Assembly: GCA_041661185.1 (NCBI GenBank)
Contig: JBAZUV010000001.1
Span: 224,721 to 288,720 of the forward strand
DNA from: Elusimicrobiota bacterium
Lineage (GTDB): Bacteria; Elusimicrobiota; Elusimicrobia; UBA1565
DNA: 64,000 nucleotides
Direction: 5' to 3'
Shown: positions 3,167 through 34,252 of the stretch, in pieces
Layout: every line of letters starts with the position of its first letter
Numbering within the stretch: position 1 is the first letter of the stretch
Made by a program: the position numbers and the translations under genes
The notes under the pieces: model-generated
The model's database searches: none
What the model was told of the DNA's origin: nothing
Seen by the model: the letters and a program-made list of their open reading frames with translations, nothing else

Positions 3167-3190
3167 CAGACGATAAACGGAGGACGCACC

Positions 3191-4835: not shown

Positions 4836-4839
4836 GGGT

Positions 4840-10356: not shown

Positions 10357-11346
10357 ATGGAGATATCCGTCATCCTCGTCATCGCCCTGGCCTTGGCATT
10401 CGACTTCATCAACGGCTTCCACGACTCGGCCAACTCCATCGCCACCGTGGTCTCCACCCGGGTCCTCTCGCCAAGGTCCGCGGTCCTATGGGCCGCATTC
10501 TTCAACTTCATCGCCTTCCTTATGTTCAAGCTGCACGTGGCCGCCACGATCGGGAAAGGCATCATAGACCCCGGCATCGTGGACATCCGGGTCATTGCCG
10601 CGACCTTGATCGGCGCCGCGCTATGGGACCTTGCCACATGGCACTGGGGCCTGCCCTCAAGCTCGTCTCACGCCCTCATCGGGGGGTTCATCGGCGCGGC
10701 TTTGGTCAAGGCCGGCACATCGGCCCTGATCTGGGAAGGCATCATCAGGACCGTGGTGTTCATGGTCATCGCGCCGGTGTTGGGCATCGTCTTGGGCTCG
10801 GCGATCGGAGTGGCGGTCTACTGGATATTCCGGCATGTGATGCCGGGGCGTATCGAGGGGATCTTCCGCAGAGGGCAGCTCGTTTCCGCGGCTCTTTATA
10901 GTTTGGGCCACGGCGGCAACGACGCACAGAAGACCATGGGAATCATCTCGGTACTGCTTTTTTCAACCGGCTACCTGGGAGGGGAGTTCCATGTCCCGAC
11001 ATGGGTCGTGCTCTCCTGCCATGCGGCCATGGGCTTGGGCACGCTCTTCGGCGGCTGGCGCATCGTCAAGACCATGGGCCAGAAGGTGGCCAAACTCCGG
11101 CCCGTGGACGGCTTCTGCGCGGAGACCGGCGGGGCCATGACGCTCTACTTGGCCTCGGCCTTGGGCGTGCCGGTGAGCACCACGCATACCATCACCGGAG
11201 CCATCATGGGAGTGGGCTCTCTTCGGCGTTTGACTGCGGTGCGCTGGGGCGTGAGCGGCAATATCGTCCTGGCCTGGCTGCTCACCATCCCCGCGGCCGC
11301 CCTGGTCTCAAGCCTCTCCTATTGGCTGATGACCCTTCTGAAATAA
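10357..11346 (+). CDS. pit: inorganic phosphate transporter, PiT family
   Basis: Contains the GFHDSANSIATVVSTRVL and GNDAQKTMGII signature repeats. Confidence 0.9.
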   Translation: MEISVILVIALALAFDFINGFHDSANSIATVVSTRVLSPRSAVLWAAFFNFIAFLMFKLHVAATIGKGIIDPGIVDIRVIAATLIGAALWDLATWHWGLPSSSSHALIGGFIGAALVKAGTSALIWEGIIRTVVFMVIAPVLGIVLGSAIGVAVYWIFRHVMPGRIEGIFRRGQLVSAALYSLGHGGNDAQKTMGIISVLLFSTGYLGGEFHVPTWVVLSCHAAMGLGTLFGGWRIVKTMGQKVAKLRPVDGFCAETGGAMTLYLASALGVPVSTTHTITGAIMGVGSLRRLTAVRWGVSGNIVLAWLLTIPAAALVSSLSYWLMTLLK

Positions 11347-16404: not shown

Positions 16405-19400
16405 CTATTTCGGCGACGCGTTTTGCGGCAGGGCTTCTCCCATCACCAGCTTTACCGCGTGGGCCGCTCCGTCGTCGACCAGCGCGATGGCGCTCGGATC
16501 GGCCGGCTTGCCGTCGAGCTCCGCGGAAACGACCCCTCGGCAGCGGTGTCCCGGGTTAGACACCGAGATCACGTAGCGCGTCCGGCCGAAGAGCCACGAG
16601 ATCTCATACTCGGACCAGGAAGAAGGGATGCAGGGGTCCAGTTCGAAGGCCGCGCCGCGGCGCTTGAGTCCCAGGATGCTCTCGAGCCCTGCGCGGTACA
16701 TCCAGCCCGCCGAACCGGTGTACCAGGTCCAGCCGGCTCGGCCGGAATGGTCGGGGTGCGCCAAGACGTCGCCGGCGAGGACGTAGGGCTCGCCCTTGTA
16801 GCGGCCGACGTCCGCGGCGCTGCGCGTGTGGTTGATGGGGTTGAGCATGTGGAAGAGCTCGGCGGCCTCGTCGCCGCAGCCCTGCTTGGCCAGGGCCATG
16901 ACGATCCAGGCGGCCGCGTGCGTGTATTGGCCGCCGTTCTCGCGCGCGCCGGGCGGGTAGCCCTTGATGTAGCCGGGCGACTGCTCCGAGCGGTCGAAGG
17001 GCGGCGTGAGCAGGAGGATGAGCCCGGCTCCGCGGCGGACGAGGTGGGTCCGCACCGCGTCCATCGCGCGCTCCGCCAGGCGCGGCGGGGCCGCGCCGGA
17101 AAGCACGGCCCAGGCCTGCGAGATCGAGTCGATCTGGCACTCGGGGCTTTGCGCCGAGCCCAGAGCGACGCCGTCGTCGTCGTAAGCGCGCCGGTACCAC
17201 TCGCCGTCCCACGACTGCTCGAGCACCGCCGCCAGGCGGCTCGCTTCGGCTCGGCAGCGCTCGGCTCGGGGGGAGTCTCCGCGGGACTCGCACAGGGGCG
17301 CGAAGTCGCCGAGCACTGCATATAGGAAAAAGCCGAGCCAGACGCTTTCGCCCCGTCCTTCACGTCCCACGCGGTTCATGCCGTCGTTCCAGTCGCCGTT
17401 GCCCATCAGCGGCAGGCCGTGCGCGCCCGAGGTGAGTCCGCGGTCGAGCGCGCGCGTGCAGTGCTCGAAGAGCGAGGCTCTTTCTGCACAGACGCTCGGC
17501 CGGCAATAGCTTTCCTGCTCGCCGGGCGCCAGCAGCGGGGACTCCAGGAACGGGACGCTCTCGTCGAGTATCCCGGAGTCTCCCGTCGTCTTCACGTAGT
17601 GCGCGACGGCGTAGGGAAGCCAGAGAAGGTCGTCGGAGCAGCGGGTGCGCGTGCCCCGGCCGCTGGGCGGATGCCACCAATGCTGGACGTCGCCCTCCAG
17701 GAACTGACGGGCGGCCGCGCGCAGGAGGTGCTCCCTCGCCAGGTCCGGCCGGGCCAGCATGAGAGCCAGCGCATCCTGAAGCTGGTCGCGAAATCCAAAG
17801 GCGCCGCCGGGCTGGGAGTAGCCGGTCCGCGCCCAGAGGCGGCAGCCGAGGTTCTGATAGAGCAGCCAGCGGTTCATCAGGAGATCGAAGGAGTCATCGG
17901 GCGTTTTGACCTGCACCGCACCGAGGGTATTCTCCCAGCCTTGGCGCACGCTCTCGAGCGCCGCGCGCGCCGCCGGGACGCCGCCGTGTCGGACGATCAA
18001 TTCACGGGCGTGCGCCGCGTCCTTTCCCTGGCCGAGGAGGAAGACCATGCGGCGCGTTTCGCCCGGCAGGAGCTTCACCGGGACCTGCAGCGCCGCGCAC
18101 GGATCGAGGCCGGCCCCGAAGCGTCCCGAGAGCGTTTCCCGGAATAGCGCCGCCGGACGGGAGAGCGAGCCGTTTCGCCCGAGGAAGGAGGTCCGGTCGC
18201 CCGAAGACGACTTCACCGCGTCGCTGGAATGGAGGAAGGCCGTTCGTCCCGCGAAGTCGTTGTTCCAGGCGTTGGAGGCCAGGATCGCCCCGGTCTGCGC
18301 GTCTCGCTGGGTTAGGACGTTCAGGTGCCGGCCGTCCTGAGGAGGCCCCAGCGACCACTCGTTGTAGGCGAAGATGCTCAATGCGCAGGGCGAGCCGCTC
18401 TCATTGCTCAGCGTCAGGAGAGAGAATTTCACGGGGTCCGCCGCGTCCACGAAGATCTCCAGGCGATGACGGATCCCGTGGACGGCGCGGTCGAAGCTCG
18501 TGACTCCGGCCGCGTGGCGGATCACGAAGCGGCCGCCTTCGCTCGTCCGGGGCAGCGGGCCCGGCGTCGGAGACCAGACCGCGCCCGTTTTGTCGTCGCG
18601 GACGAAGATCGCCTCGGAGGTCGGGTCGCAGACCGGGTCGTTGGCGAAGGGCGTGAGCCGATTCTCCCGGCTGTTTTCGGACCAAGTGTATGACGAGCCC
18701 GATTCCGTGACGACGGTTCCGAAAGCCGGGCCGGCGAGGACGTTGGCCCAGGGCAGCGGCGTCCCCTGGGCGCCTTCGAGGACGATGGCGTACTCGCGTC
18801 CGCCTTCCGTGAAGCCGCCCAGACCGTTGGCCATGACCATCGGCGGCGCCTCCGGCGGCATGCAGGGCTTGCCGTTTCGCGGGGCCCGCCGCGTCGGGGG
18901 CGCGGGCTCGCGGGACGCGCGCACGGTCCAATCCGGCGAGGGCCGGTCGAGCTGCTGCGAGAGGCCTCCGCGGTCGCTGCTGAGGATGGCCCGCGCGACG
19001 GCCTGGAGCAGGAGGCGTTCGGCTTCGGGCATGCGGTCCGCGCGGAGCAGGTATGCGCCGCCGGGCCGGTGCTTCCACGTCCGCCAGGGACCGTTGTCGA
19101 GCAGCGCCGTCAGCTGGGCGTGGACCTCGTCGTAATAGCTCACGGGATGCTCGTTGAGGATCACGACGTCCGCGAGCAGGCCCTTGAGCCGCCAGTACTC
19201 CTGGGCCTGGAGGATCTGGCGCGCGAGCGCGAGCCCGTCCTGCGAGAGGACGCGCACCAGCACGATCGGCAGGTCGCCCGAGATTTCGTGCGGCCAGAGT
19301 CCCGATTGGCCCAGCGTGCTGCGCGTCATGACCTCGGGAGCGGCGCGCAGAGAGGCGTCGTGGTAGAGGACGCGCGAGGCGAGGCGGTCGAAAAGGAGCG

Positions 19401-22400
19401 TTTCCTCGATCGAAAGGCCGAGGTGGCGCCGGTTGCTCTGGGCGTGCGCGAAGGCCATGGCGAAGGTGCGCGCCGCGGCGCTGGGATCGCGGTAGCGCTG
19501 GACGAGCGCCAGGGCCATCTCCCGGCTCGACGCCGCGCCCGTGGCGAAGGAGAGCCTCGCGACGGCGCCTGGCGCCAGGAGGATGCGCCGGCGCAGGCTG
19601 ACGATGGGATCGAGCAGGACGCCGGTCGTTCCGGTCAGCGGGCGCCCATCGAGCGCCTGCGGGTCCTCGGGACCGCGTCCGCGTCCGAGGAAGCGGGCCC
19701 GATCGCTCTCCCACTCCATGGGGCCTTGCGCGCGTCCGTCGAGACTAAGGACATGGACGGCCCATGCCGGCGCGTCTTCCGGAGAGCGCGATCGTCGCCG
19801 GCAGAGCAGCGCGCCGGCGTCGGCCAGATATTCCGACTCCACGAAGAGCTTGCCGAACGCCGGATGAGCGAGATCGTCGGCCGGCGGAGCCAGGACGATC
19901 TCGGCATAGCTCGTGACCTCGAGCTCGCGTGTCCGCTCGTCGTGGTTGGTCACCGTGAGGCGGCGGACCTCGACGTCGTCCTCGGGAGAGACGGCGATCT
20001 CCAGCTGGGTGGCGATTCCGTCGTCGCGGCGAAGGTAGGTCGCCTTGTCGATGGAGAAGGTGACGAGGGGGTTTTCTCCCTCCGTGCCGATCGGATGATG
20101 CGCCGTCGACCAGACGCGGCCGCTGCGCACGTCGCGCAGGTAGAGGAACTGGCTGCCGGGGTCGCGCGTCGCGTCCGAGCGCGTCCGGGTGATCGCTCGT
20201 CCCGCGCAGAAGCTGGCGCCGCCGCCCGCGTTGGTGACCACCACGGTGTATCGGCCGTTCGAGAGGAACTGGGCGTGAGGGAAGGTCGTGTAGGCGGAGC
20301 GGAATCTGCGCACCGCCGCCGCGGACACGGGCGCGGATATCCGCGTTCCGTCGTCCGGCCGCGGGCGGATGATCAGCGCGTGGCGCGGCGCGCGCTCCTG
20401 CAGGAGGAGCTCGGTGGCCCGCACGCGAGGATCGGCGTGGAATCGCTCCACCATCCGCCTTCCGTCGAGGACGTTGGCGATGGCGGTCAGCGCCATGCCC
20501 TGGTGATGGGCCATGTACGTCTTCACGATCGCGCCGGGAGGTCCGCGCCGGTCCGGGATCCGCGCGGTCGGCTCGTCGCTGCCGCGCGGGGTGTAGTCGA
20601 CGGCATCGAAATAGCCGTATTCGCCCTCGAGTCCCTCCGCTTTCAGGCGCCGCAGGTTGCCGGCGGCCGCCGCGGGGTCGACCAGGGCGGCCAGCGCCGC
20701 GGCGTAGGGCGCGATCACCAGTTCGTCGCCGAGGCCGCGCTTGAGGCCCAGGCCGGGCACGCCGAAGGCCTTGTATTGATAGTTGTCGTGGCGGTCGACG
20801 AGCGTGTAGGCGCATTCGGAGATCCCCCACGGCACGCCGCGCGCCTTCGCGTAGTCCTGCTGAGCGCGCACCGCCATCCGGCACGACTCATCGAGCAGGG
20901 TTCCCGGATATCTGCGCATCACGAGCAGCGGCATCAGATATTCGAACATCGTCGCGCTCCAAGACAGCAGCGTCGGCGTGCCGTGCACGTTCGTCACGGA
21001 GCGTCCCAGGTGGAACCAGTGCGCTTCCGGCAGGTCTCCCTTGGCGATGGCCAGGAAGCTCGCCAGACGCGCCTCCGAGGCGAGCAGATCGTACGCGGCG
21101 ACGTCGAGCTTTCCCGGCCCCTCCGCGTCCGCCGCGCGATACCCGATCGCGAGCAAGCGCCGCTGGGGGTCATAGAGGAAGCGGAAATTCATCGCGTCGC
21201 CGAACGCGGCGGCGCGCGCCGCCAGGCTCTCGAGCTTCGCGCGCGCGTCGAGGGGTTCGAGGGTCGCGGAGGGATCCAGGCGCGCGAGCTCCCGGAGCCC
21301 TTCGGCCAGGGCGATGAGCGCGCCGTAGAGATTCCCGCTGTCGACGCTGGAGACGTAGCGGGGAGTGAGCGCGGCCAGACTGCGCGTGTCGTACCAGTTG
21401 AACAGGTGGCCCTCGATGCGCTCGAGGCCCTCCATCGTCGTCAGCGCCGCGTCGATCTTCTCCAGCAATTCCGGGGTCTTGATGAAGCCGAGATCGTGCG
21501 CCGCGAGCGTCGAAAGCAGGCCGAAGCCGATATTGGTGGGAGAGGTCCGGTGCGCGAGCTTCGGCTCGGGAGAGAGCTGATAGTTGTCCGGCGGCAGGCC
21601 GTGGTCTTCCGGTCCCATGAAAGCCGCGAAATAGCCCCAGGTCTTGCGGGCCGCGGCGCGCAGGAACTCCCGGTCCTCCTCGCCGAGCTCGGCGTCCTCC
21701 CGCAAGATCGGCCGGCTCAGCACGCACGCGATCATCGGCGCGGCGGCCCACAAGACGAGCAGCGGCGCGGCCGCGGGCAGGGCACAGGGCCGGAGGATCG
21801 CGACCAGGGCCGCGCCGGCCAGCGCGATGATCGGACTCGCCGCCATCGCGATGAAGAACGACCGGGCGGCGGATGCTCCGGCGGGGCTCACGCCGCGCGC
21901 GGCGCTTGCGGCGGAGGTCTCCCACTCGAGCAGTCCTTGATGCGTGATCAGGACCCGCGCGAGCGTGACCAGGACGGCGTTGGCCGCCTCATGCGCCTGG
22001 TCGGCCAGCAAAACGAGCTGGAGCGCGATCCGCGCCAGGACGCATGCCGCATCTTCCCAGAACACGCGAAGGAAGCCTTGCCACGACTGCCGCGGCCTCG
22101 GGCCGTTGAGCGTCTCGATGGAAAGCAGGTACAACGGGAACGCGATGGCCGCAATGACGGCCGCGGTCCAGCGTCCGGGGCTTCCCGGCAGGAGCGTCCA
22201 CGCGAAGAGGAGAAGGGCGAGTGTCGCGGGAGCGACGAGGCTTCGGCGAAGGTTGTCGAGGATCTTCCACCGGGCGATCGGCGAGAGGCGGTTTCGCCGC
22301 AGGCCGGTGCGCGTCGGGACGAAGGGGAAGAGCCATGCCAGGAGCTGCCAGTCGCCGCGCATCCAGCGGCGCGCGCGGCGCGCGTACGCCGGATAGGTCG

Positions 22401-24714
22401 AGGGATAATCGTCGACGACCTCCACGTCGGTCACCAGCGCCGTGCGCGCATGAAGCCCTTCGAAAAGGTCGTGGGACAGGAGCGCATTCTCGGGCACGCG
22501 GCCGTTGAGCGCCGCTGTGAAGGCGTCGACGTCGTAGAGCCCCTTGCCGGTGAATATCCCTTCGCCGAAGAGGTCCTGATAGGCGTCCGAGACGGCCGTG
22601 GTGTAGGGATCGACGCCGGTGTGGCCGGCGTAGAGGCGCGCGAAGCGCGAGCCGGCGGCGCTGGAGCTGGTTACGCTGACGCGCGGCTGGAGGATCGCGT
22701 AGCCTTCAGTGATCCGTCCGAGCTTTTCATCGTAGTGCGGCCGGTTGAGCGGGTGCGCGATGATGCCGATGAGTTTTTTTGCCGCGTCGCGCGGCAGGCG
22801 CGTATCGGAGTCGAGGGTGATGCAGCAGCGCACGCGCGGGAGCGCCGACAAGTCCCCCGTCTGGACGGTGAAGCCCGTGTCCTTCGCCCCGCGCAGGAGG
22901 GCATTGAGCTCCTCGAGCTTGCCGCGCTTGCGCTCCCAGCCCATCCAGGACCCTTCGCCGGGGTTCCAGCGGCGCTCGCGATGGAGCAGGAAGAAGCGGT
23001 CTCCCCGCCCTTCGCTCAGGCGCGCGTTGAGTTCCGCGATGCCGCTGCGGGCGGCGTCCAGGATGGCGTCGTCGTCCGGCGTTTCTTTCGCGTCCGCGTC
23101 CGTGAAGTCGCTGAGGATCGCGAAATGGATCCGGGGATCGAGGTTGCCCAGAGCAAGGACCTCGATATGCTCGACGAGCTCCCGGGTTCCCTCGACGCTC
23201 GTCAGAAGGGTGGGCACCACGACGAGGGTCCGAGCGTCATCGGGGATCCCCGCCAGGAGGTCCAGGCGCGGCAGGCGCCGCGGCGGCGCGAACCACGCGG
23301 CGAGGCGCTGGATGAGGGCGATGGCCGCATCGCTGGCCGGCAGGAGCAGCAGCGCCGCGAGGACGAGCCGCATGCGGATCGAGCCTCCGTCGCTTCCGAC
23401 AAAAGAGAGCGCGGCCGCGATCAGCGCGCCGGTCGTCAGCGAGATCGCGCTCAGATAGACGAACCCGGCGTGGGCGAACGCCGCGCGCCTCAAGCGCTGC
23501 AGCGGGCCGGGATGCCAGGCTACGTCCTCTTCAAGGGTGCGGCGGCCCTTTCCGATCAGGTGCCAGCCCACGTGCGCGGCGCGCGCGGACGGCCCCCCGG
23601 TCTCGGCCGCCAGGCGGGCGCTTTCGACGGTCCTCAGGGCCACGCGCACCTGGGCTTCCGCGGCGGGCTCGGCCAGTTCCTCGATGGACTGCCGGTAGCG
23701 GTCCCGGCTCAAGAAATCCATGCGCGGGTAGATGCCGGCGGGATCGCGCCTGAGGACGCGCTCGACGAGACTCACGGCCTCGACGTACTCGCTCCAGTCC
23801 AAGGCGGAGACCAGGCGCATGCTGGTGATGACGTTGGCCGTGGAGACCTGGGAGACGGCCTCTCGCTGGTGTTCGCAGCGGATCGCTTCCTCGGGCGTCA
23901 TCGGCAAGGCGGCCAGATGCGCGTCGAGGCCTGCGCGAACGGCTTCAAGGCGGGGCCCATACTCCCGCACGCGCTGGAGGAGCTGCACGATCTGCGCGAG
24001 ATGGAGCTCTCGGGGCAGCGGCGGCGGGACTCCCTTGCCCGCCGCGTCGATCCGGGCCACATACGCGTCCGCGGCCCGCCGCGCCGCGCGGGCGGCCAGG
24101 ATCTCCTCGGTCAGGCGCCGCAGGTTCTCGATGAGGGCCAGCTTCAGCATGCTCGGCCATGCCCAGAGCTCTCCGATCGTCAGCGGGGCGACGGTCTGGA
24201 AGCTGTCCAGGAAGCGCACGAGCTGAGGGCGGTCCAGGCGGCTGTCGCTGTGGCGGATGAGCTCTACGGCCAGGGCGTAGACGCGGGCGTGGCCGGCAAG
24301 CTCGCGCGAGGCGAGCTTGGGCAGCTCGCGGTAGTAGGCGCGCGGGAGGTTTTGGTGCACTTCCCGGATCTCGGAGACCGCCAGGTAAAAATTATCCAGG
24401 AGCCACTCCGCCGCCGGAGTGACGAACTCGCCTTGGTGCACGTCGTCGGCGAGCGTGCGGTAGGCCTCGCGCAGGAGGCGGGCGTTGTCCTCGAAACGAG
24501 GGAAGACGCTGCGCGCCGCGCCTCCGGAGGGGTCCACCGTGAACCGGGCCGCCAGCGCGCGGGCCCGCTCCTCCAGGCGCTCGATGCTGAGCAGTTCATC
24601 GCGCAGAGGCTTCTCGGCCCTGGGGGCGGAGCGGAACCTTCCGCCGAAAGATCCTGAGGTGAACGCTGCGAAGAAGGAGTTCTCAATCCGACCAAAGTCA
24701 GAGTTTCGCAGCAT
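16405..24714 (-). CDS. cyclic beta-1,2-glucan synthase (Cgs/NdvB/ChvB-like: N-terminal membrane GT84 domain + C-terminal GH94 phosphorylase-like domain)
   Basis: 2769 aa. DSDTRLP and RRWMRGDWQ glycosyltransferase motifs, multiple transmembrane blocks, and a C-terminal GH94-type [13 protein letters not shown]. Codon bias produces long antisense shadow ORFs. Confidence 0.85.
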
Positions 24715-25962: not shown

Positions 25963-27168
25963 ATGACATTGCCTAAATTCAACCGCCCCATCCTTAAAAA
26001 AATACGAACACGGCTGCAGGAAGATCGTAGATTCATCCAAGTCCTGATCGGCCCGCGTCAAGTGGGAAAGACCACGCTGGTCCGACAATTCCTGGAGGAC
26101 GCTGATATTGCGCACCACTACGCATCCGCGGACGAACCATCACTGCACGACCGGACGTGGATCGAAGCGCAGTGGGAGATCGCTCGCTTGCGGGCCAAGC
26201 ATGCGGACAAGCGCGGCGCGCTGTTTGTTTTGGACGAGGCGCACAAGACGACGCATTGGTCGGAAGCGGTCAAGCGGCTCTGGGATGAGGATACCGCTTC
26301 GGGCATGAATCTTAAAGTCGTTCTGCTCGGGTCATCTCCTCTGCTGATACAAAAGGGTTTGACGGAGAGCCTTGCCGGCCGCTTTGAACTCATCCGAGTT
26401 CCGCATTGGTCGTTTGCCGAAATGAAGGAGGCTTTCGGCTGGAGTCTGGATCAATATCTCTATTTCGGCGGTTATCCAAGCTGCGCGGAGCTCGCCGCGG
26501 ACGAGGAGCGCTGGCGCCGATATCTGCAGGATTCGTTGGTGGAGACGACGCTGTCTCGGGACATCCTGCTGCAGACTCGCGTCGATAAACCGGCATTGCT
26601 GCGGCAGCTTTTCCGCCTGGGCTGCGACTACTCGGGACAGATACTCTCCTATCAAAAGATGTTGGGACAACTGCATGATGCCGGGAATACGGTCACGCTG
26701 GCGCACTACCTCGAGCTGCTCTCAGGCGTCGGCATGCTCACGGGACTGCAAAAATATTCCGGAACCCGTTTGCGGCAGCGAGGCTCCAGCCCAAAATTCC
26801 TCGTGCTCAATACGGCCCTCATGACGAGCGGCGCCGACCAAACCTATGGCGCGGCTCGCGAGAATCGCGACGTATGGGGAAGGCTCGTGGAATCGGCGGT
26901 GGGCGCGCATCTGGTCAATGGCCTTTCAGGAACAGGCACGGAAGTGTTCTATTGGCGCGAAGGCAATCGCGAGGTGGATTTCGTGCTGAAAGGGCACGGC
27001 CGCGTCACGGCCGTTGAGGTCACCAGTTCGCGCCGCAAGGATTCCTTGCCCGGCATGGCGGCGTTCGCCGAGGAGTTCCATCCGCAGAGGCAGCTTCTGG
27101 TCGGCGGGCAAGGGATCCCGCTTGAGGAATTCTTGTCGGCTCCCGTCGAGAAATGGGTGGCGCCTTGA
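25963..27168 (+). CDS. AAA+ ATPase (AAA_14 + DUF4143 architecture)
   Basis: Walker A GPRQVGKTT, Walker B VLDEAH. AT-rich start region; first gene of the lower-GC segment. Confidence 0.8.
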   Translation: MTLPKFNRPILKKIRTRLQEDRRFIQVLIGPRQVGKTTLVRQFLEDADIAHHYASADEPSLHDRTWIEAQWEIARLRAKHADKRGALFVLDEAHKTTHWSEAVKRLWDEDTASGMNLKVVLLGSSPLLIQKGLTESLAGRFELIRVPHWSFAEMKEAFGWSLDQYLYFGGYPSCAELAADEERWRRYLQDSLVETTLSRDILLQTRVDKPALLRQLFRLGCDYSGQILSYQKMLGQLHDAGNTVTLAHYLELLSGVGMLTGLQKYSGTRLRQRGSSPKFLVLNTALMTSGADQTYGAARENRDVWGRLVESAVGAHLVNGLSGTGTEVFYWREGNREVDFVLKGHGRVTAVEVTSSRRKDSLPGMAAFAEEFHPQRQLLVGGQGIPLEEFLSAPVEKWVAP

Positions 27169-27257
27169 CGGCTGCCGGGCACGCATAAGCGAGTTTATCG
27201 ATTCCAGCAGTAAACTCGCCATATTTGATGGGCTGGAAGGTCGACCGCAAGTTAAAA

Positions 27258-27294
27258 GGAGAACCGGAAGCATTCGCTTCCGGTTCTCCTTTTG
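27258..27294 (+). terminator. rho-independent terminator (14-bp perfect stem GGAGAACCGGAAGC/GCTTCCGGTTCTCC + TTTT)
   Basis: Seen directly in the sequence downstream of the AAA ATPase gene. Confidence 0.8.
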
Positions 27295-27501
27295 AGTTAT
27301 CAGATAAACTGGCGGGCCCGATGGGGGCAATTTCCTACTGGTTTGAAGCGGTATATTGTTCCTTTGGTCCAGGAAGTGCATTTTATCCCTTCTCTGACTT
27401 TGTCTTGGCCCATCGAATTGAAGCGCATCCCCAATGGCGAAAAGGTCATCGTTGAGGTCTTGACTTGCCCTGTCCCTCAATTTGAGGTAGTCCTTATGTG
27501 A
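27292..27501 (+). CDS. AbrB/MazE-like (swapped-hairpin) small protein, paralog of 32775..33071
   Basis: PIELKRIPNGEKVIVEV resembles the AbrB looped-hinge motif and aligns with PVRLRRITNGEKVIWQT in the second copy. Confidence 0.35.
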   Translation: MSYQINWRARWGQFPTGLKRYIVPLVQEVHFIPSLTLSWPIELKRIPNGEKVIVEVLTCPVPQFEVVLM

Positions 27502-27505
27502 AAAG

Positions 27506-27545
27506 TTTCCAATCCCGTCGTCCCCTAAGACGATGGGGGCAATTG
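27506..27545 (+). repeat. att-like repeat R2 (tRNA-Asp 3'-end-like TTCCAATCCCGTCGTCCCC + TAAGACGATGGGGGCAATT)
   Basis: Matches 18 of 20 nt of the sense 3' end of tRNA-Asp (TTCGAATCCCGTCGACCCC). Other copies: R1 (partial) 27313-27332, R3 33006-33044, R4 33158-33193. Confidence 0.5.
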
Positions 27546-27564
27546 CGCTAAAAGGGGGTATGCC

Positions 27565-28008
27565 GTGACTAAGCCGAAGGCGGGCCAGGATTATCTTACG
27601 ACTACTGGATTGCCGGTCCGTTTCCTGAAACGGGACAGCGGATGCATGCTTTTGCAGAGTCTTTGGACGGATAATCGGTTTCTTGTTCCTGAGACCTATC
27701 CGCTTAAGCCCTTGAAAGAGAAGCCGTCTGGCCCGGATCTGCGCTCCACTCCGTACAAGGAGTCCACACGGCCGACGCCGGAGGAGAGGAATCGGCCACT
27801 GGCCCCTGTCATTGATGCTCTGCTGATGGAGGGCAGGTTGACCATGAAAGGCCTCGCGAGAGAGGTCAGGCGGCGGGCCAGTGCGGCGTGTTGGGGGAAG
27901 GACGTGCGGGCCAATATTCGATCCCGGATAAGCTGGTTGCAGAAGCGGGGGATGGAATTCCTCCGAGACGGTGGCGGCCGGCTTTGTATTCAGCGGAAGT
28001 GCGAATAG
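27565..28008 (+). CDS. hypothetical protein (possible winged-helix regulator)
   Basis: 147-aa ORF in the island. No confident domain. Confidence 0.35.
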   Translation: MTKPKAGQDYLTTTGLPVRFLKRDSGCMLLQSLWTDNRFLVPETYPLKPLKEKPSGPDLRSTPYKESTRPTPEERNRPLAPVIDALLMEGRLTMKGLAREVRRRASAACWGKDVRANIRSRISWLQKRGMEFLRDGGGRLCIQRKCE

Positions 28009-28055
28009 CTGACTATATTAAGGCGTGCTGGTTAGGTTCTCGAATCTGGAATATT

Positions 28056-29339
28056 CTACTTCTCGCCACGCTTGAAGTTAAGATATTCCAGATCATAAGC
28101 ATCTTGGATGTTCTCGCCCTTCGTGAATTTTCGCAAGATTGCCTTAAATGCCGAATCAGTGGTTCCGAACCAGTGTAAGTAGTATCGCGACTTGATGACG
28201 CTTAGGGCTGATTGGCCCAGCGGATTGTAGTGTAGTCGGCACCAAAGCGCATGATGGAAAGTCAGTCCAGTATGCGCCAAGTTATCGCTTTTCCACTGAG
28301 ATATGATGATCAGATTCTGGTAATGGAAGAAATTCACTGAAGCAAGAAGATTTTTCGTGCGAATGTATTTCACCACGGAGAACGGTCGACTGGTATTGGG
28401 TGCCACATCTGGAGCATCCGTAGCCCGCAAATCCTCAAACGAAGGTGGATAGTTAAAAAATACATGGTAAAGAGAATGCCCGACGGCTGTTGCCTGGCCA
28501 AGATTTTTTATTTCAAAAGGGATGTCAAAACGGTGGGATTCGTTTTTCCACTCGGCTTGAACGGGTGCTGCCGCCGGAATTACATCCAAAATTGGGCGTT
28601 GTGAGTAGAGATATACATAAAGGGAACTCGCAACACCGACGATTGCTGCGACGTATCCCCAGGCTTTGGAATGAAAGAGGGAGATGAATTTGTCACATAA
28701 GCCGCCCTGCTTGGTAGGACTTCTGGAATACTTTTTGGCTTCCTGGAGTGCTGATATCCATTTGGCATATTGGCACCGAAGGAGCTTTATGCCCACAGTT
28801 TCATCGCCAACCTTAATCTCGGCTTTTCTGGAAACCTCCTCAAGTAGTTTGCTTTCTCTACCGCAGTAGCGTTCGATGAGGGCAATAACCTTAATGCGAT
28901 AGCTGCCCACAATCCCAATCTCATCTTTTACATCCCGATATGAGGATGATTGCTCCCTGGTGAGTTCACGTATCAAGTCATCGATTTCGGACGGGGGTTG
29001 GGACGCCTTGCCCGGGAGTGCCTCTAGATTTGTGCGGATCAAAGCGAGGCATCTATCAATAGCGTTTCCAAGAGGGCGAAACTGTGCGAGCGTGAAGTAT
29101 CCCCTGCCTTGAAAATCGGTTGTCCCGCTGCTTTGCGGGATTTCTAAATTCTCTATATCCCCAAAAAGATGGGGATCAAGTTCTTTTAGGCGTGCTATTG
29201 TTCGGATCGCTCTTTCAAAAAAAGGCCTGTGCGAATCGGGATCAAAGTACCTTCCACCAGAGCCGAACACTTGTCCAGAGAGATGGCGGTGTAATGTGTC
29301 AAGCTCTGGAAGATGCTTTTGGGCAATTTCGCTATTCAC
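28056..29339 (-). CDS. hypothetical protein with one central TM helix; last gene of the defense-like operon
   Basis: 427 aa, GTG start 4 nt after the DGQHR gene stop. TM segment WGYVAAIVGVASSLYVYLY. Low GC. Confidence 0.5.
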   Translation of the reverse strand: MNSEIAQKHLPELDTLHRHLSGQVFGSGGRYFDPDSHRPFFERAIRTIARLKELDPHLFGDIENLEIPQSSGTTDFQGRGYFTLAQFRPLGNAIDRCLALIRTNLEALPGKASQPPSEIDDLIRELTREQSSSYRDVKDEIGIVGSYRIKVIALIERYCGRESKLLEEVSRKAEIKVGDETVGIKLLRCQYAKWISALQEAKKYSRSPTKQGGLCDKFISLFHSKAWGYVAAIVGVASSLYVYLYSQRPILDVIPAAAPVQAEWKNESHRFDIPFEIKNLGQATAVGHSLYHVFFNYPPSFEDLRATDAPDVAPNTSRPFSVVKYIRTKNLLASVNFFHYQNLIIISQWKSDNLAHTGLTFHHALWCRLHYNPLGQSALSVIKSRYYLHWFGTTDSAFKAILRKFTKGENIQDAYDLEYLNFKRGEK

Positions 29340-29343
29340 GAAT

Positions 29344-30891
29344 CTATTCTCTGAAAAGTGGATGTGTCTTTTTGATCTCCGCGACCATTTCTCGATGGAA
29401 TCTCTTCCAGCCCTGAGAGCCTGTGTAGTTCTGTTGGAGCTTGCTGGTTTCCCAGTTCTTCCATCCTGTTTTTAGGGGTTGGAGGTAGCTCTTAATTGTT
29501 TCGTGATCGAGAGTCCCGCCATGTGTCCGCAGCATAGACTTCAGGAGTTTTAGGAAAGCAGATATCCCCCGGTTAGTAGCTATGATGTAACGGTTGGGAT
29601 CTGCCCATTCCTTTTTGAACAAGCTTTGAATTGTTGAGAAATAAGTGCGAAGAGCCGTGTTGTATTCATCGGCGGTATTTGCGGTATAGTGCTTTCTTAG
29701 CAAGCCGCGGGGGCCCAAGAGTCCTTTGAGATCGTAGCCAGCGAAGCCTTTAAGCGTAATACGCTGGTCGCCGACATCTAATAGTCTAATGGCCTTCTTG
29801 AAGGGGCTGATCTTGTTGAGTTCTACGACGACGCGGATGGCCATGAGTTCATTGTCCGCTTGGCAGAGGACATCATCCTTGGTGTATTTGAGATATGCGA
29901 CAAGATTTGCATCCATCCTTCGGGAGTTGTCATTGATCGCGATAAACGCATCGCGCTTTTGTGAGTCGTCTAACTCGCGAAGCCCAGTCACAAGAACGCC
30001 GTAATTGCGCTGGGTTATCTCATCGCAATGGCTGAAGCCAAAAATCCGATGTTGGCCATCAATAATCTCCATCGAGGCATATTCGAGCGGGATGCTGAGT
30101 GCGACAAATCGCGAATCGCATCTGGAAAAATTGACAGGGTTGTCATGTTCGTTTTTGAACCTATCAGCATTCTTGAGATTATGGGAGACAACCTGTGGGC
30201 TTAGATGAAGCACGACGTTTGTTGGAAGGATAGAGTCTCTTTGAGAAAGAAATTTGGCAATGCTTGGCAACCGCTTGGTCGATAGCATGCGCTGGTAGGC
30301 ATTTGCGTCGCCTTGAGCTCGGCGAAATATGGCGCAGGTTTTGAGGAGCTTTTCAGCAGGCATTGAGAAGAGGAAGAGTTCGGTGGTTGAGTGCTTATTG
30401 GGTTGGGTAAGTCGGACAGCCGGGACCGTGAGTGTGGCTTTCTCCTCTCTTGTTGTTATGCCTAGGGAATGAATGATTTCATATCTGGACCACTTCCCAA
30501 TAGCGTTTGCGATGGCCTCGAAATATGCCAGCTCATCGAGCCCCCAAACCGTATCACCATTTTCTCTGGCGAACTGCCGATCTGCTTCGGTAATCTCGTG
30601 TTCTGTTGAAATAAATAGGACGGCATCCGCTTTCAGTTTCTTTTTGATAACGTCGTAATCGTGAACATGAGTCGAAAAAGACTCTTTGAGTTCCTTCCGT
30701 GCCTTATTCCACCCTACGATAGATATATCGAGTTCCTCTTCGGTAGCAAAAAGGTCGAGAGTCCGTTTCTTGCCACGAATATCCACCTCCTTTTCTGCGG
30801 GGTCGCTGGAGTGCGGCTGAGTTTTGAATCCGGCTTTGGAGAAAAGTTGCCACACGCGTTTGTTTAGGTGCGAACCTTTATTAATTGGCAT
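29344..30891 (-). CDS. DGQHR-domain (DndB-like, ParB/Srx superfamily) protein with N-terminal nuclease-like region
   Basis: Literal DGQHR motif (MEIIDGQHRIFGF). 515 aa. Lies 5 nt downstream of the restriction endonuclease gene. Confidence 0.7.
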   Translation of the reverse strand: MPINKGSHLNKRVWQLFSKAGFKTQPHSSDPAEKEVDIRGKKRTLDLFATEEELDISIVGWNKARKELKESFSTHVHDYDVIKKKLKADAVLFISTEHEITEADRQFARENGDTVWGLDELAYFEAIANAIGKWSRYEIIHSLGITTREEKATLTVPAVRLTQPNKHSTTELFLFSMPAEKLLKTCAIFRRAQGDANAYQRMLSTKRLPSIAKFLSQRDSILPTNVVLHLSPQVVSHNLKNADRFKNEHDNPVNFSRCDSRFVALSIPLEYASMEIIDGQHRIFGFSHCDEITQRNYGVLVTGLRELDDSQKRDAFIAINDNSRRMDANLVAYLKYTKDDVLCQADNELMAIRVVVELNKISPFKKAIRLLDVGDQRITLKGFAGYDLKGLLGPRGLLRKHYTANTADEYNTALRTYFSTIQSLFKKEWADPNRYIIATNRGISAFLKLLKSMLRTHGGTLDHETIKSYLQPLKTGWKNWETSKLQQNYTGSQGWKRFHREMVAEIKKTHPLFRE

Positions 30892-30896
30892 AGGGG

Positions 30897-31442
30897 CTAT
30901 ACGTCAATTAGGATGACCTTAACGGGCACGGCCGGGAAGTGGCGCTTGAGGCGTTCAATGTCGTAAATCAGTTGCTCGCCATAGGAGACGCCCGTGGACA
31001 TCTGCTTATGCATCGCATGGCAGGGCACGATCTCAATGCCGACATCTGCCTTGTTCTCATTGAAGAAATACTGAAACTTGGCCATGTCGTAGAACATGAA
31101 CGCATACTTTCCGAACTGAACCTCGACGAGGACTCGATTCTTGACGAAGTCTACCTGCTTGAAGGCCCCCTCCACACGTATGGGGTAGTTCGGAAGCTCA
31201 ATGGTGTAAGTGTCGCGAAGCTCCTTGTAGCCTCTGGCGTGGAACGCGGAATGAAACAGCGCGTTGATCTCCTTCGGGCTATAGAGGAGTTCGCCCGGCA
31301 TGGTCTTCTCTTTGCTGACCTTCGATTTCTTGAGATTCTTGATGCTAGCAATGACGTCGTCGATTTCTTTCTCAAGTTTCGGATAGCGCACCTTTAGAAT
31401 TTCGCTACCTCCCAGGTGGGAGTACTCGTAGGCTTTATGCAC
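30897..31442 (-). CDS. type II restriction endonuclease, BglII-like
   Basis: VLVEVQFGKYAFMF matches the BglII catalytic-core pattern (TLVEVQFSNYPFLL). Overlaps the methyltransferase gene by 8 nt. Confidence 0.65.
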   Translation of the reverse strand: MHKAYEYSHLGGSEILKVRYPKLEKEIDDVIASIKNLKKSKVSKEKTMPGELLYSPKEINALFHSAFHARGYKELRDTYTIELPNYPIRVEGAFKQVDFVKNRVLVEVQFGKYAFMFYDMAKFQYFFNENKADVGIEIVPCHAMHKQMSTGVSYGEQLIYDIERLKRHFPAVPVKVILIDV

Positions 31443-32463
31443 AGATTATCTCCTTGAGCAGTTTCTTGCCCGCTCGACTCCGTTTGCCATCCAGGAGGAA
31501 TAATTGGTCGAGCTTGTCCTTCCCATTGCCATAGGTGGTCTCTGGCGGCAATGATAGGCGCGAGCTCTTTGGGTCGTAGATCGGGCGGTTCATGGGTCGG
31601 GTACGGAGCTTCCCACTGGCCGCAAGCATGATGCGGTCTCTCGCGACCTTGATGTAGTTGGGCATGATGTCCGCACCAGCGGCCTTGCGGCCGTGCCGGA
31701 TCGCGGCTACGGCTGTCGTGCCCACACCCAGGAATGGGTCTAGGACTCTGTCTCCGGGGTTGGTCATCGAAAGCACTAGGCGCTCGATCAGTTCCACCGG
31801 GAACTGGCAGGGATGGATCGTCTTCTCTACATGGTTGTGCTTTACGTTTGGGATGACCCAAAGGTCTCCGGGATTCTTTCCGAGTGGGTTGCAGGAAAGC
31901 TGTCCCGCTTTCGGCCCCTTGAAGTATTTCTTGCCGGGATATTTCTGGGGGATTCGGACGGGATCCACGTTGAAGATGTAGTCGGAGGACTTGGTGAACC
32001 AGTTGATCGTTTCGTAGCGCCCGGAGAATCTTTTTGAGCAGTGCAGGCCATGCTCGAAGTGCCATATGATCCGATTGCGCATGCGCAGGCCAAGCTTGGC
32101 GAATATCGTGTAAAGTGGGATATCCAGCGGAACGATTTCGTCCTTGCCGATGTAATTGCCGACTTGCCAGCAGATGCTGCCATTGTTCGACAAGACCCGG
32201 ACACACTCCTTTATGACTGATTCCTGTTGCGCTAGATACTTCTCCAGCGAAACGCGTTTCTCATAGGACTTCCCGATGTTGTAGGGCGGTGAAGTGACGA
32301 TGAGCTGGACAGAGCTAGCGGGCATCGAAGCCAGCAGGTCTAAGCAGCTTCCTTGGAAGAGTACTACGTCGGCTTGGGGCTCATAGGACGAAGATATGCC
32401 GGGACCATTGGTTTCCCGGACGAGATGGTGGCCTTTGCGGCGTGGAATGCGATATTTAGTCAT
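31435..32463 (-). CDS. DNA methyltransferase (beta-class N4-cytosine/N6-adenine; SPPY motif)
   Basis: LIVTSPPYNIGK motif IV and a C-terminal FxGxG-like AdoMet motif (DPFLGVGTT). Confidence 0.85.
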   Translation of the reverse strand: MTKYRIPRRKGHHLVRETNGPGISSSYEPQADVVLFQGSCLDLLASMPASSVQLIVTSPPYNIGKSYEKRVSLEKYLAQQESVIKECVRVLSNNGSICWQVGNYIGKDEIVPLDIPLYTIFAKLGLRMRNRIIWHFEHGLHCSKRFSGRYETINWFTKSSDYIFNVDPVRIPQKYPGKKYFKGPKAGQLSCNPLGKNPGDLWVIPNVKHNHVEKTIHPCQFPVELIERLVLSMTNPGDRVLDPFLGVGTTAVAAIRHGRKAAGADIMPNYIKVARDRIMLAASGKLRTRPMNRPIYDPKSSRLSLPPETTYGNGKDKLDQLFLLDGKRSRAGKKLLKEIICA

Positions 32464-32656
32464 TGACCTTTCTGAGCAAGCGGCTCAGCTCCCTGCGATC
32501 ATAGAGACGGTACTGGTTCACGGGGTGTCGCCGACACACAAGTTTCCCGCTGCGATCCCATCTCCTTAATGTAAGAGCGGACACCCCTAAAAGTTCCGCA
32601 GCATCTTTTACCGTCATGAATTCTCGAAAAGTTTTCATTGCGGTCACCTTAATCAA
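32456..32656 (-). CDS. small HTH DNA-binding protein (MerR/excisionase-like); possible R-M controller
   Basis: MTVKDAAELLGVSALTLRRWDRSGKL helix-turn-helix. Overlaps the methyltransferase start. Confidence 0.55.
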   Translation of the reverse strand: MIKVTAMKTFREFMTVKDAAELLGVSALTLRRWDRSGKLVCRRHPVNQYRLYDRRELSRLLRKVND

Positions 32657-32774
32657 CGTTAATCATTCTACTAAGCATCAGCGATCGGGTCAAATTTCTC
32701 ATGCATGAACGGACTTGAGCTGTGCCGGAAACGAAGGTAGCTTGGGGTTGCCCTATAGGGCAAGGAGGCTACAG

Positions 32775-33071
32775 ATGCTTAATGAATCGAATCCGCAGTC
32801 TGATACACCGAAGGTTCTGCGGATCACACTGGCCATGCCGGTCCGCTTGCGGCGCATCACTAACGGCGAGAAGGTCATCTGGCAGACCGGGCCCGATGAC
32901 TGTGGAGTTGAGATCGTCGACGTGACAGACGACGCGCGTGCCCGACTTCAGGAGCTACTTAGAATTCTCGACGACGCCGAGCGTCAGCTACGCAAGCGGC
33001 GAAAAGTTCAAATCCCGTCGGGCCCTAAGACGACGGGGGCAATTACCCACCACAAGAACGAAGGCAAGTAG
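32775..33071 (+). CDS. AbrB/MazE-like small protein (paralog of 27292..27501)
   Basis: LAMPVRLRRITNGEKVIWQTGPDDCGVEIVDV. The 3' end contains the att-like repeat. Confidence 0.4.
   Translation: MLNESNPQSDTPKVLRITLAMPVRLRRITNGEKVIWQTGPDDCGVEIVDVTDDARARLQELLRILDDAERQLRKRRKVQIPSGPKTTGAITHHKNEGK
33006..33044 (+). repeat. att-like repeat R3 (GTTCAAATCCCGTCGGGCCC + TAAGACGACGGGGGCAATT)
   Basis: Same unit as R2. Contains the hairpin CCCGTCG...CGACGGG. Confidence 0.5.
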
Positions 33072-33157
33072 TCGGTAAGCGGGATGTGCGATTTGTGGAA
33101 TTATTCGGAAGCGCCTCGGTGTCCTCGACGAGAAAAATGGGATTGCGCTCCGTCGAG

Positions 33158-33193
33158 AAGTTCAAATCCCATCGTGAGGTGCAGTCGGGGGCA
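33158..33193 (+). repeat. att-like repeat R4 (degenerate: GTTCAAATCCCATCGTGAGG...GGGGGCAA)
   Basis: Degenerate third copy, 70 nt before tRNA-Asp. Confidence 0.35.
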
Positions 33194-33260
33194 AAAAAAC
33201 ACCGGCGCAATTTCTCTTATTATTCCTAGAGAAATTGCGCCGGGTTATCGCCAGAAGAGC

Positions 33261-33339
33261 TGGCGGGGTCGACGGGATTCGAACCCGCGGTCTCCGCCTT
33301 GACAGGGCGGCGTGTTAAACCAGGCTACACCACGACCCC
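33261..33339 (-). tRNA. tRNA-Asp (anticodon GTC), CCA encoded
   Basis: Reverse complement folds as a cloverleaf: acceptor GGGGTCG/CGACCCC, anticodon loop CTGTCAA, T-loop GTTCGAATC. Confidence 0.9.
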
Positions 33340-33433
33340 AAGAAATGAATCTTCCTGAAGTCGATTATAGCACATCCCGGCCCGGGCTTCCTCAAAAAGC
33401 GGGGCGCGATTTCCGCGCCGCCGGCGAAAAGCG

Positions 33434-33616
33434 CTAACGTTCTTTTTGGTCGTCGCGATCCATCATCTCAACGAGTTCGGAAAAGTCCGAGCTGAGGGTG
33501 CTGAAGCGTTCCTCGAGATGCTCCCATTCGGGGTCCGCATCCTTCACTTGGACCTTCTTTGTCGACGAGCGGACGGATTTTTTCGCCGGCTTCGCCGCTT
33601 TTTTCTTGATCGGCAT
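33434..33616 (-). CDS. hypothetical small basic protein
   Basis: 60-aa ORF; lysine-rich N-terminus. Confidence 0.25.
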   Translation of the reverse strand: MPIKKKAAKPAKKSVRSSTKKVQVKDADPEWEHLEERFSTLSSDFSELVEMMDRDDQKER

Positions 33617-34170: not shown

Positions 34171-34180
34171 GGGGAAAGTG

Positions 34181-34252
34181 TGGGCAGTGCAGGGTTCGAA
34201 CCTGCGACCCCCTCCTTGTAAGGGAGGTGCTCTACCGCTGAGCTAACTGCCC
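34181..34252 (-). tRNA. tRNA-Val (anticodon TAC), CCA not encoded
   Basis: Reverse complement: GGGCAGTTAGCTCAGCGGTAGAGCACCTCCCTTACAAGGAGGGGGTCGCAGGTTCGAACCCTGCACTGCCCA. All four stems pair. Confidence 0.85.

Follow-up and report, generated by a model that had tools for sequence, protein, structure and literature searches.

The 64-kb stretch of Elusimicrobiota DNA analyzed here (the window) carries, beside a tRNA-Asp gene, an island punctuated by four tRNA-like repeats, R1 to R4. Positions 27296-33276 of the window probably constitute one integrated element that lacks its recombinase and belongs to a family of large serine recombinase (LSR) elements inserting at the 3' end of tRNA-Asp. The family has so far been seen in Elusimicrobiota assemblies. 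Low GC content (46-50% at 28.0-31.5 kb versus 62-70% in the flanks) supports the view of an earlier note on this DNA that the island was horizontally acquired. That note also proposed site-specific integration at tRNA-Asp, which stands, and took R2-R4 for attachment (att) scars of serial integrations, which does not: these repeats are palindromes of LSR 3' ends. An apparent paradox of wrongly oriented att repeats and no integrase thus becomes the remnant of a recombinase-less LSR element with defined ends that carries restriction-modification (R-M) and DGQHR defense genes.

Boundaries of the element at tRNA-Asp

The integration target is an intact tRNA-Asp(GTC) gene on the minus strand at 33261-33339 (ARAGORN; Rfam tRNA, 68 bits), and a tRNA-Val gene lies on the same strand at 34180-34252. 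Direct repeats at 27296-27325 and 33244-33276, identical at 24 of 30 positions with a 3-nt gap, form the boundaries and are annotated on the minus strand. The attR site at 33244-33276 is GTTATCGCCAGAAGAGCTGGCGGGGTCGACGGG, the trailer of tRNA-Asp plus the last 16 nt of the gene. The attL site at 27296-27325 includes R1 and consists of GTTATC---AGATAAACTGGCGGGCCCGATGGG joined to the element-side half CGATGGGGGCAATT. In its left half, CTGGCGGG, R1 repeats the extreme 3' end of tRNA-Asp in the gene's own orientation, a feature not noticed earlier; the right half is the element side of the junction, where 27319-27338 corresponds to the right half of R only (CGAYGGGGGCAATT). A direct repeat of the tRNA 3' end is therefore present at the distal boundary in the tRNA's orientation, and because this tRNA end is correctly oriented, there is no orientation paradox. 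The same junction makes it unnecessary to invoke a crossover at the CG of GTCGAC in the acceptor stem, a palindromic central dinucleotide that would have permitted integration in either orientation, and we rejected this candidate.

Scanning genome, viral and metagenome collections for the pattern of R yielded ~25 further true copies, many of them on contigs labelled Elusimicrobia. The window locus is L001, placed by the analysis on contig JBAYGF010000001.1 of the Elusimicrobiota assembly GCA_041666825.1, and the comparator loci, numbered on from it, are mostly metagenome-assembled genomes (MAGs) or metagenome contigs. The orthologous locus of a related MAG, GCA_041660925.1, is L095. Window and L095 are homologous at 27301-27915 and 32784-33538, with the right flank syntenic at 77-81%; they are unrelated left of 27301, where the window has an AAA_14 gene and L095 an LSR gene, and they differ in cargo between 27915 and 32784. 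The framework of the two loci is the same: open reading frame (ORF) A, R, ORF147, cargo, ORF B, R, a stub, R4 and a terminator. Only the cargo from ORF147 to ORF B differs, contradicting the earlier reading of the island as three independent cassettes. The counterpart boundary pair of L095, tcgccagaaaaCTGGCGG, lies at 7485-7502 and 10473-10490, and its recombinase-less framework adjoins an LSR. This framework occurs with other cargo in L095 and L096 (a HEAT-repeat protein) and in L012 (HEAT/TPR, an M78 peptidase and an HTH protein).

Two further pairs of loci locate the junction. L020 reads LSR, R, 75 nt and ..gagcaaaaCTGGCGGGG|CCAACGGGATTCG, the latter being tRNA-Asp, whereas L043 has the LSR of L020, R and 75 nt followed by CTGGCGGGG|ACAAGAAGGGGGCG.., ORF A, a degenerate R and ORF147. 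L009 and L014 have >150 nt of terminator and trailer in common up to tatggtacgaa, after which L009 continues with tRNA-Asp and L014 with CTGGCGGCG, ORF A, R and ORF147. All three independent comparisons of occupied with unoccupied sites (L020/L043, L009/L014 and window/L095) break at CTGGCGG(G/C)G, and the junction is seen in L010, L012, L014, L043 and L009. The comparison with related genomes that the earlier note had recommended for defining attL and attR thus located the breakpoints and identified R1 as attL. In L012, a truncated LSR without catalytic domain (8389-9003 and 8864-9010) contains R-I (the R copy upstream of the att core in LSR genes; see below) and a core, and after it comes TGGCGGGCACGACGCCATGG, which looks like a decayed 3' fragment of tRNA-Asp. 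With another core junction 0.9 kb beyond, L012 comprises three or more degraded elements in an array.

A hairpin with a 23-bp stem and T/A runs on both sides (27249-27298; an inverted repeat, 91% complementary) stands just outside attL and, judging from its position, was probably the terminator of tRNA-Asp before the island arrived and also that of the AAA_14 gene from the other side. An island-supplied intrinsic terminator of tRNA-Asp now lies on the minus strand at 33202-33243, a perfect 16-bp stem (100% complementary) followed by TGTTTTTTTG; it is also present in L003, L005 and L095. The trailer of tRNA-Asp pairs with the CCA end as CGCCAG-N5-CTGGCG. A fold-back of the form CGCCAG-N4/5-CTGGCG is found at 33244-33268 in the window, 10469-10492 in L095 and 527-551 in L003, and the same small inverted repeat recurs inside the LSR gene of L095 at the att core (attcgccagaaaaCTGGCGG). 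It may mark the true center of the att site. It is the only symmetry of the tRNA-end core; the dyad of R is clear, at roughly 17-8-17.

Recombinase genes of related loci

No LSR was found in the window by tblastn with the LSR of L015 (no match at E<1e-3) or by Pfam searches of the island ORFs. Nor is a Phage_integrase or Resolvase Pfam domain recorded for the genes called within 10 kb on either side of the methyltransferase gene, an interval taking in island and flanks. These results agree with the earlier note, which saw no integrase in the window. Nor is there a tyrosine (Phage_integrase) recombinase among the genes called in L001 (for the same 10 kb on either side of the methyltransferase gene), L003, L005, L012, L014, L094 and L095.

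Recombinases of the serine type, by contrast with the window, adjoin R in many related loci. A 105-kb contig carries two R copies ~42.8 kb apart, each within 0.9 kb of the ends of a provirus predicted in IMG/VR. At the right end an LSR of 634 aa (L015; Resolvase, Recombinase and Zn_ribbon_recom domains) runs into R, and at the left end of the 42.7-kb provirus (L094) LSR homology starts at the right arm of R-I. Searched by tblastn, the L015 LSR revealed more LSRs next to R in L050, L043, L020, L066, L010, L012, L081 and L091, and gene calls give an LSR of 617 aa in L095 and L096. In NCBIfam the related LSR matches CcrB best (E 1.4e-48), with 166 bits against a cut-off of 900, a score so far below the cut-off that the enzyme is not a Ccr. 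The nearest named LSR relatives are CcrB and XisF, both far under the family cut-offs. Just upstream of the LSR in L095, positions 2402-4848 hold two tandem IS3-family copies (HTH_Tnp_1 plus rve) and a fragment of a terminase large subunit, so that the LSR-bearing element there looks like a decaying prophage.

The att core lies within these recombinase genes. The plus strand of the tRNA gene reads CTGGCGGGG-T-CGACGGGATTCGAAC, and CTGGCGGGG, the reverse complement of the last tRNA-Asp bases (CCCCGCCAG), is the DNA of the codons NWRG. The core TGGCGGGG, reverse complement of the tRNA's CCCCGCCA, is inside the LSR ORFs of L015, L050 and L095. The C-terminal extension of the LSRs has the order ..(E/N)WRG.., ~40 aa, ..I.NGEK.. 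and R, and in the full-length proteins of L015, L050 and L095 the reading frame continues past ..(E/N)WRG.. to the NGEK domain and on into R; the LSR ORF of L020 stops inside the antisense tRNA instead. In full LSR genes two R copies flank the core, ~75 nt upstream (R-I) and ~190 nt downstream (R-II).

Small ORF A of the window (27292-27501, plus strand) is the displaced counterpart of this extension, 69 3'-terminal codons of an LSR gene (..INWRA..HFIPSLTLSWPIELKRIPNGEKVIVEV..). It is homologous to the last ~70-110 LSR residues; identity is 40-46% to the part of the C-terminal extension behind the core in the LSRs, or what remains of them, at L010, L014, L091 and L009. The alignment spans NWR to the end, and tblastn against the L009 copy gives E 2.5e-8. 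ORF A has no Pfam match.

The boundaries, homologies and breakpoints of the element are direct observations, and comparison with related genomes suggests that the LSR gene is cut by its own integration. The extension of a complete gene (L015, L091, L095) comprises R-I, a spacer of ~60-75 nt, the core TGGCGGGG with its codons NWRG, the NGEK domain and R-II, with ORF147 next. Recombination between core and tRNA end would keep the tRNA intact and cut the LSR gene, leaving the catalytic part beside the tRNA and the tail of core, NGEK domain and R-II at the far end as attL. R1, ORF A and R2 of the window would be such a tail, followed by ORF147 and swappable cargo (type II R-M, a DGQHR protein and a 427-aa protein), and at the tRNA-proximal end ORF B with R3, a spacer, R4 and the tRNA terminator stand in place of an LSR. 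An island of this kind would be mobile only with an LSR supplied in trans. A core-type circle would read ..GTTATCGCCAGAAGAGCTGGCGGG|CCCGATGGGGGCAATTTCC.., and an R-type circle would read from the ORF B 3' end ..AAGTTCAAATCCCGTCGGGCC|CTAAGACGATGGGGGCAATTGCGCTAAAAGG into ORF147. Loss or exchange of the NGEK tail may have regulatory meaning. A broader proposal is of a bacterial LSR family whose gene spans its own att core, whose NGEK tail is removed or swapped as a directionality switch with ORF B acting in trans, and whose R copies serve as secondary sites that capture defense cassettes into islands like those of integrons or the staphylococcal cassette chromosome (SCC). We put it forward tentatively, and as a whole it is rather doubtful.

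The R palindrome and rival explanations

All four repeat copies described in the earlier note are present on the window sequence. R2, in the R-II position, is a 43-nt palindrome on the plus strand at 27502-27544 (feature 27500-27551), AATCCCGTCG-TCCCCTAAGA-CGATGGG. R3, also of 43 nt and on the plus strand (33002-33044; feature 33000-33051), is AATCCCGTCG-GGCCCTAAGA-CGACGGG followed by GGCAATTACCCACC. In a self-comparison of the window the two are 86% identical over 43 nt and spaced by exactly 5500 nt. R4 (GTTCAAATCCCATCG..CGGGGGCAA; 33154-33203, plus strand) is a degenerate copy in which 33151-33174 corresponds to the left part of R3 at 88% and the right half is kept but degenerate. The stub between R3 and R4 (33052-33153, plus strand) is a non-coding spacer of ~100 nt with no significant RNA fold (z +1.2 and -0.4), and a layout of R, ~106-120 nt and a further copy, R', recurs in L003, L015 and L050. 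The observation that R2 and R3 read like a tRNA 3' half in opposite orientation holds as well, their left arms being complementary to the plus-strand T-loop/acceptor stretch of tRNA-Asp at 17/19 and 17/20 positions, respectively.

We searched the window, with filters off, with a covariance model of 22 R copies from other metagenomes. R3 scored 57 bits (E 1.5e-9), R2 51 bits (E 2.6e-8) and R4 28 bits (E 9e-4), and no further credible copy was found in the 64 kb. By this measure the repeats are local, not dispersed, within the 64 kb. Repetitive extragenic palindromes (REPs) and miniature inverted-repeat transposable elements were rejected on the same result for the window, there being just R2, R3 and R4 in its 64 kb and no REP-associated tyrosine transposase. 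Short R halves searched alone with 3 mismatches are no rarer than chance expects.

The consensus of R, aaaaGTTCAAATCCCGYCGT, 8 nt and ACGRCGGGATTAC(C/A)AC, is an imperfect palindrome with arms of ~17 nt and an 8-nt spacer. The tRNA stretch adjoining the core, CGACGGGATTYGAAC, equals the right arm, and its reverse complement equals the left arm, GTTCRAATCCCGTCG. The arms of R thus form an inverted pair of a tRNA T-arm half-site, which accounts for the apparent tRNA 3' end in the wrong orientation. NGEK-domain coding sequence lies upstream of 18 of the 26 R sites in other assemblies, several of these loci having a full LSR gene or standing beside tRNA-Asp. Downstream partners vary among the 26 sites, with ORF147 at 10, AAA_14 at 3, a spacer plus R' at 4 and other sequence at the rest. 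The junction of NGEK-coding sequence, R and ORF147 seen at R2 is repeated in L010, L014, L021, L028, L091, L094 and L095; AAA_14 follows R directly in L009, L066 and L081; and what distinguishes L050 from L074 is a segment of 1.4 kb with R' at one end and R at the other. AAA_14/DUF4143 ATPases also occur beside R as an alternative to ORF147 on several unrelated contigs, in L009 (3448-4640), L066 (782-1876), L012 (6703-8151), L081 and L038, and the AAA_14 copy of the window just outside attL may be the remnant of an older element. Two copies of R are fused to tRNA-end-like sequence, L084 (305-336) with GGGAGCCGCCAGCC after the right arm and L038 (1453-1484) with TTGGCGGGCAAATCCCGTCG before the left arm. 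These fusions hint that R and the tRNA end may recombine in additional registers.

What R does was weighed against several alternatives. The palindrome could merely encode the conserved C terminus (KVQIPSGPKTTG) of a small protein whose gene was duplicated, its likeness to tRNA being coincidental, since the repeat is in frame and its peptide is conserved in ORF B, L003 and the L015 LSR. Elsewhere, however, the same DNA is read in other frames (KVQIPS.., KFKSRR.. and SSNPVVP* are all used) or falls after a stop codon, as at R2 behind ORF A in the window and in L012 and L014, and R4 and R' are non-coding. R is also better conserved than the adjacent coding sequence: L087 and L074 are nearly identical over ~40 nt while the neighboring peptide is ~60% identical. 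With palindromic symmetry and a 15-nt exact match to the tRNA T-loop/stem (GTTCRAATCCCGTCG) that recurs across lineages, the coding explanation is hardly credible. An RNA-level hairpin (a terminator or insulator) or a tRNA-like processing signal, retained for transcript handling, accords with the 8-11 bp GC-rich stem kept in all copies (86.8% of cells paired), with a minus-strand stem followed by ATTTGAACTTTT, with the position of the L020 copy, which is the hairpin met first behind tRNA-Asp when its own strand is followed, and with R2 folding better than shuffles (z -2.9, plus strand). Yet z is ~0 for R3, R4 and the minus strands, a consensus terminator scan misses R, and a whole-window Rfam scan yields only the two true tRNAs. 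Mismatches in the stem are frequent and uncompensated (C.A at one pair in 6/22), covariation barely exceeds that of shuffles, and palindromic conservation reaches 8-10 nt past the stem on both sides. Moreover, the loop is reverse-complemented between copies with the same outer flanks, a change that a functional RNA loop would not tolerate. We consider an RNA role improbable; reading in several frames, uncompensated mismatches, ordinary folding and the reversed loop together indicate that R is a DNA-level inverted repeat. The 10-nt loop is TCCCCTAAGA or its exact reverse complement TCTTAGGGGA (R2 27514-27537, L012 9955-9978, L014 9875-9898 and L095 7698-7724), and the outer flanks of loop-reversed copies are homologous and in the same orientation, with the same upstream stop codon and downstream ORF147 start. 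Either a small inversion of the hairpin loop or a reversal of site polarity would produce this arrangement.

The earlier interpretation, in which R1-R4 are tRNA-Asp 3'-end scars of serial integrations, typically by a tyrosine integrase, bracketing independent cassettes, draws on the 17/19 and 17/20 matches of R2 and R3 to the tRNA 3' half, on the two flanking the low-GC cargo as direct repeats and on tandem accretion at tRNA-Asp in the relatives L012 and L043. R2-R4 are, however, inverted with respect to the tRNA, an orientation that simple integration cannot produce, and their similarity ends 5-7 nt short of the tRNA 3' end. Complete elements carry R inside or at the end of LSR coding sequence, no tyrosine integrase is present at any locus examined, and the difference from L095 is confined to the cargo described above and is not cassette-wise. 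Serial scars are therefore very unlikely. Most simply, R would be a binding site for a dimeric protein, and likely one for the LSR. We infer that R copies bound by LSR dimers act as secondary recombination sites that join downstream modules; from the sequences compared, the odds between such a site and an accessory or regulatory one appear about even. The accessory alternative in its full form, an operator or a synapsis site like res subsites II/III whose partners vary by ordinary recombination, would explain why the two R copies keep fixed positions at ~-75 and ~+190 nt from the core in full LSR genes, why the arms equal the tRNA half-site beside the core, and why the loop dinucleotides (CT, AG, AC and AT) are unlike anything in the core, a difference that makes exchange between R and core unlikely. 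Two patterns look like true junctions instead, namely the way LSR homology in L094 sets in at the R-I right arm and the constant left and variable right partners of R, and this fuller alternative is on the whole unlikely, if less so than an RNA role.

Several points weigh against the LSR element and mechanism that we favor. The breakpoint between L050 and L074 lies in the right arm, off the center of the palindrome; it agrees with an accessory role and also fits a deletion by homologous recombination at short repeats. Sites of 40-50 bp, with no accessory sites, suffice for known LSRs, and these enzymes do not as a rule recombine sites that are nearly identical, which makes R unorthodox as a recombination site. 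Minimal sites without accessory sites are described for characterized LSRs (PMC3783163), a point that tells against an accessory role for R as well. Searching 1.84 billion representatives with a profile gave short proteins almost exclusively, with no full-length LSR among them. As the window has no LSR, the mechanism is drawn from other assemblies, mostly MAGs and metagenome contigs, that may be mis-assembled at repeats. The crossover dinucleotide could lie in TGGCGGGG or in the 4-5 nt of trailer between CGCCAG and CTGGCG. Finally, the LSR, core and ORF A of L095 could belong together as an uncut gene in one larger element and not be a chimera of two tandem elements.

Related systems and genes of the island

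The feature in the window is an LSR-type integrative island without recombinase, and the unusual traits of its family are the tRNA target, the core in the recombinase ORF and the tRNA-mimicking palindromes. SCC provides known examples of recombinase-less elements with R-M cargo that stand in tandem arrays at a single LSR site (PMC6243372). Like SCC/SCCmec and pseudo-SCC elements (CcrAB/CcrC), the family inserts by an LSR at the 3' end of one conserved gene that is kept, has direct-repeat boundaries, piles up in tandem and includes recombinase-less members with R-M or other protective cargo. The window resembles a pseudo-SCC in having attL and attR without an LSR but with the same repeats and target as recombinase-bearing members. 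It differs in target (tRNA-Asp here, rlmH/orfX in SCC) and in host phylum (Elusimicrobiota), and an att core inside the recombinase gene itself is a trait of the present family. We know of no SCC counterpart to tRNA-like palindromes of the R type.

That core invites comparison with the SSV-type ('suicidal') integrases of archaeal viruses and plasmids. Their att site, which resembles part of a tRNA gene, is located within the gene for the integrase, and on integration the two pieces of that gene come to lie at opposite ends of the element; a 2021 review places self-disrupting recombinases exclusively in Archaea, the SSV type being tyrosine enzymes (PMC8371274). The likeness consists in a core inside the LSR ORF in L015, L050 and L095, a truncated ORF in L020 and a displaced 3' piece in the window. 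In contrast, the enzyme here is a bacterial serine recombinase in Elusimicrobiota MAGs, and only the non-catalytic extension after the coiled coil is cut, so that catalytic, recombinase, zinc-ribbon and coiled-coil parts stay together. Classical tRNA islands with a tyrosine integrase likewise use a tRNA 3' end, carry an element-borne copy that keeps the tRNA intact and low-GC cargo, and leave a displaced partial tRNA 3' end (as R1 here) at the distal boundary in the tRNA's orientation, but the related loci here have an LSR and none was found with a tyrosine integrase. Integron attC sites resemble R as imperfect palindromes between unrelated genes with a constant left and a variable right partner; R is ~42 nt long and tied to the end of the LSR gene, and the stretches from one R copy to the next do not consist of single ORFs lacking a promoter. 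An attC identity was rejected, since R lacks RYYYAAC/GTTRRRY core sites and no IntI is present.

Serine integrase targets are usually reported in protein-coding genes, not tRNA genes. In the literature that we searched, an LSR at tRNA-Asp is not reported, and nothing specific turned up on LSR prophages of Elusimicrobia. If the LSR gene is indeed cut by its own integration and R is a module junction, the family would represent a new control of serine-integrase directionality, a new cassette-capturing site and a serine-recombinase counterpart of the archaeal self-partitioning integrases. Both the control and the capturing site would be of practical interest, LSRs being tools of genome engineering.

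ORF147 (147 aa; 27565-28008, plus strand) is the conserved first element gene after R, with homologs immediately after R in 9 other loci. It has no Pfam, NCBIfam or PADLOC match, and a role as regulator or directionality factor is only a guess. The cargo lies on the minus strand and begins in the low-GC block with a 427-aa protein of no family in Pfam, NCBIfam or PADLOC (28056-29339), absent from L095. It is followed by a DGQHR-domain protein resembling DndB/DpdB (29344-30891; TIGR03187 E 8e-34, DpdB E 9e-20, Pfam DndB), a BglII-like type II restriction endonuclease (30897-31442; Pfam Endonuc-BglII E 8e-21, PADLOC REase_II E 1.5e-37) and a type II N6/N4 DNA methyltransferase (31435-32463; Pfam N6_N4_Mtase E 9e-54, PADLOC MTase_II E 8e-87). 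A small DNA-binding protein of the excisionase-type MerR/HTH_17 class (32456-32656; Pfam MerR_1 and HTH_17, PADLOC mad1) is probably the controller of the R-M system; its gene overlaps the start of the methylase gene, and a promoter scan places a promoter-like site at 32693-32665. Positions 7138-11949 of L094 form the left part of the 42.7-kb predicted provirus on contig Ga0265297_10000585. There ORF146, a homolog of ORF147, is followed by a PLD-like nuclease, a 918-aa N6_Mtase/Eco57I-type enzyme and an N6_N4 methylase, so that a large element, too, has defense or R-M cargo behind ORF147, and this cargo, like that of the window, is on the opposite strand.

Small ORF B (98 aa; 32775-33071, plus strand) is a free-standing paralog of the NGEK domain whose last codons pass through R3. 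Its start is at 32775 and not, as previously given, at 32715. The two small ORFs are paralogs, as the earlier note had recognized, ORF B sharing the C-terminal NGEK domain with the LSR extension of ORF A, but their designation as AbrB-like finds no match in Pfam, NCBIfam or PADLOC. An AlphaFold2 model of ORF B (four strands and a long helix) is of low confidence (pLDDT 65.6), and its Foldseek search of the PDB, a weak fold test for such a model, returned nothing at E<=0.001. The family numbers only 33 representatives among 1.84 billion proteins. The homologs P0002, P0003, P0010 and P0011 occupy the same position next to tRNA-Asp. Where the contig reaches far enough (L003, L005, L095 and L097), the order is ORF B, R, a spacer, a degenerate R, the terminator and tRNA-Asp on the opposite strand. 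We had entertained ORF B, R3, R4 and tRNA-Asp as native synteny; the comparison shows instead a tRNA-proximal end that is conserved across the element family.

The left flank, beyond the island boundary set by R1, holds the AAA_14/DUF4143 ATPase gene at 25963-27168 on the plus strand (Pfam AAA_14 and DUF4143; PADLOC candidate defense family PDC-S01, E 2.7e-177). Further left, a 2769-aa ORF on the minus strand (16405-24714; ~70% GC) with GH94, glycoamylase and glycosyltransferase domains recorded in Pfam resembles cyclic beta-1,2-glucan synthase and adjoins the left edge of a lower-GC block that begins at ~24.7 kb.

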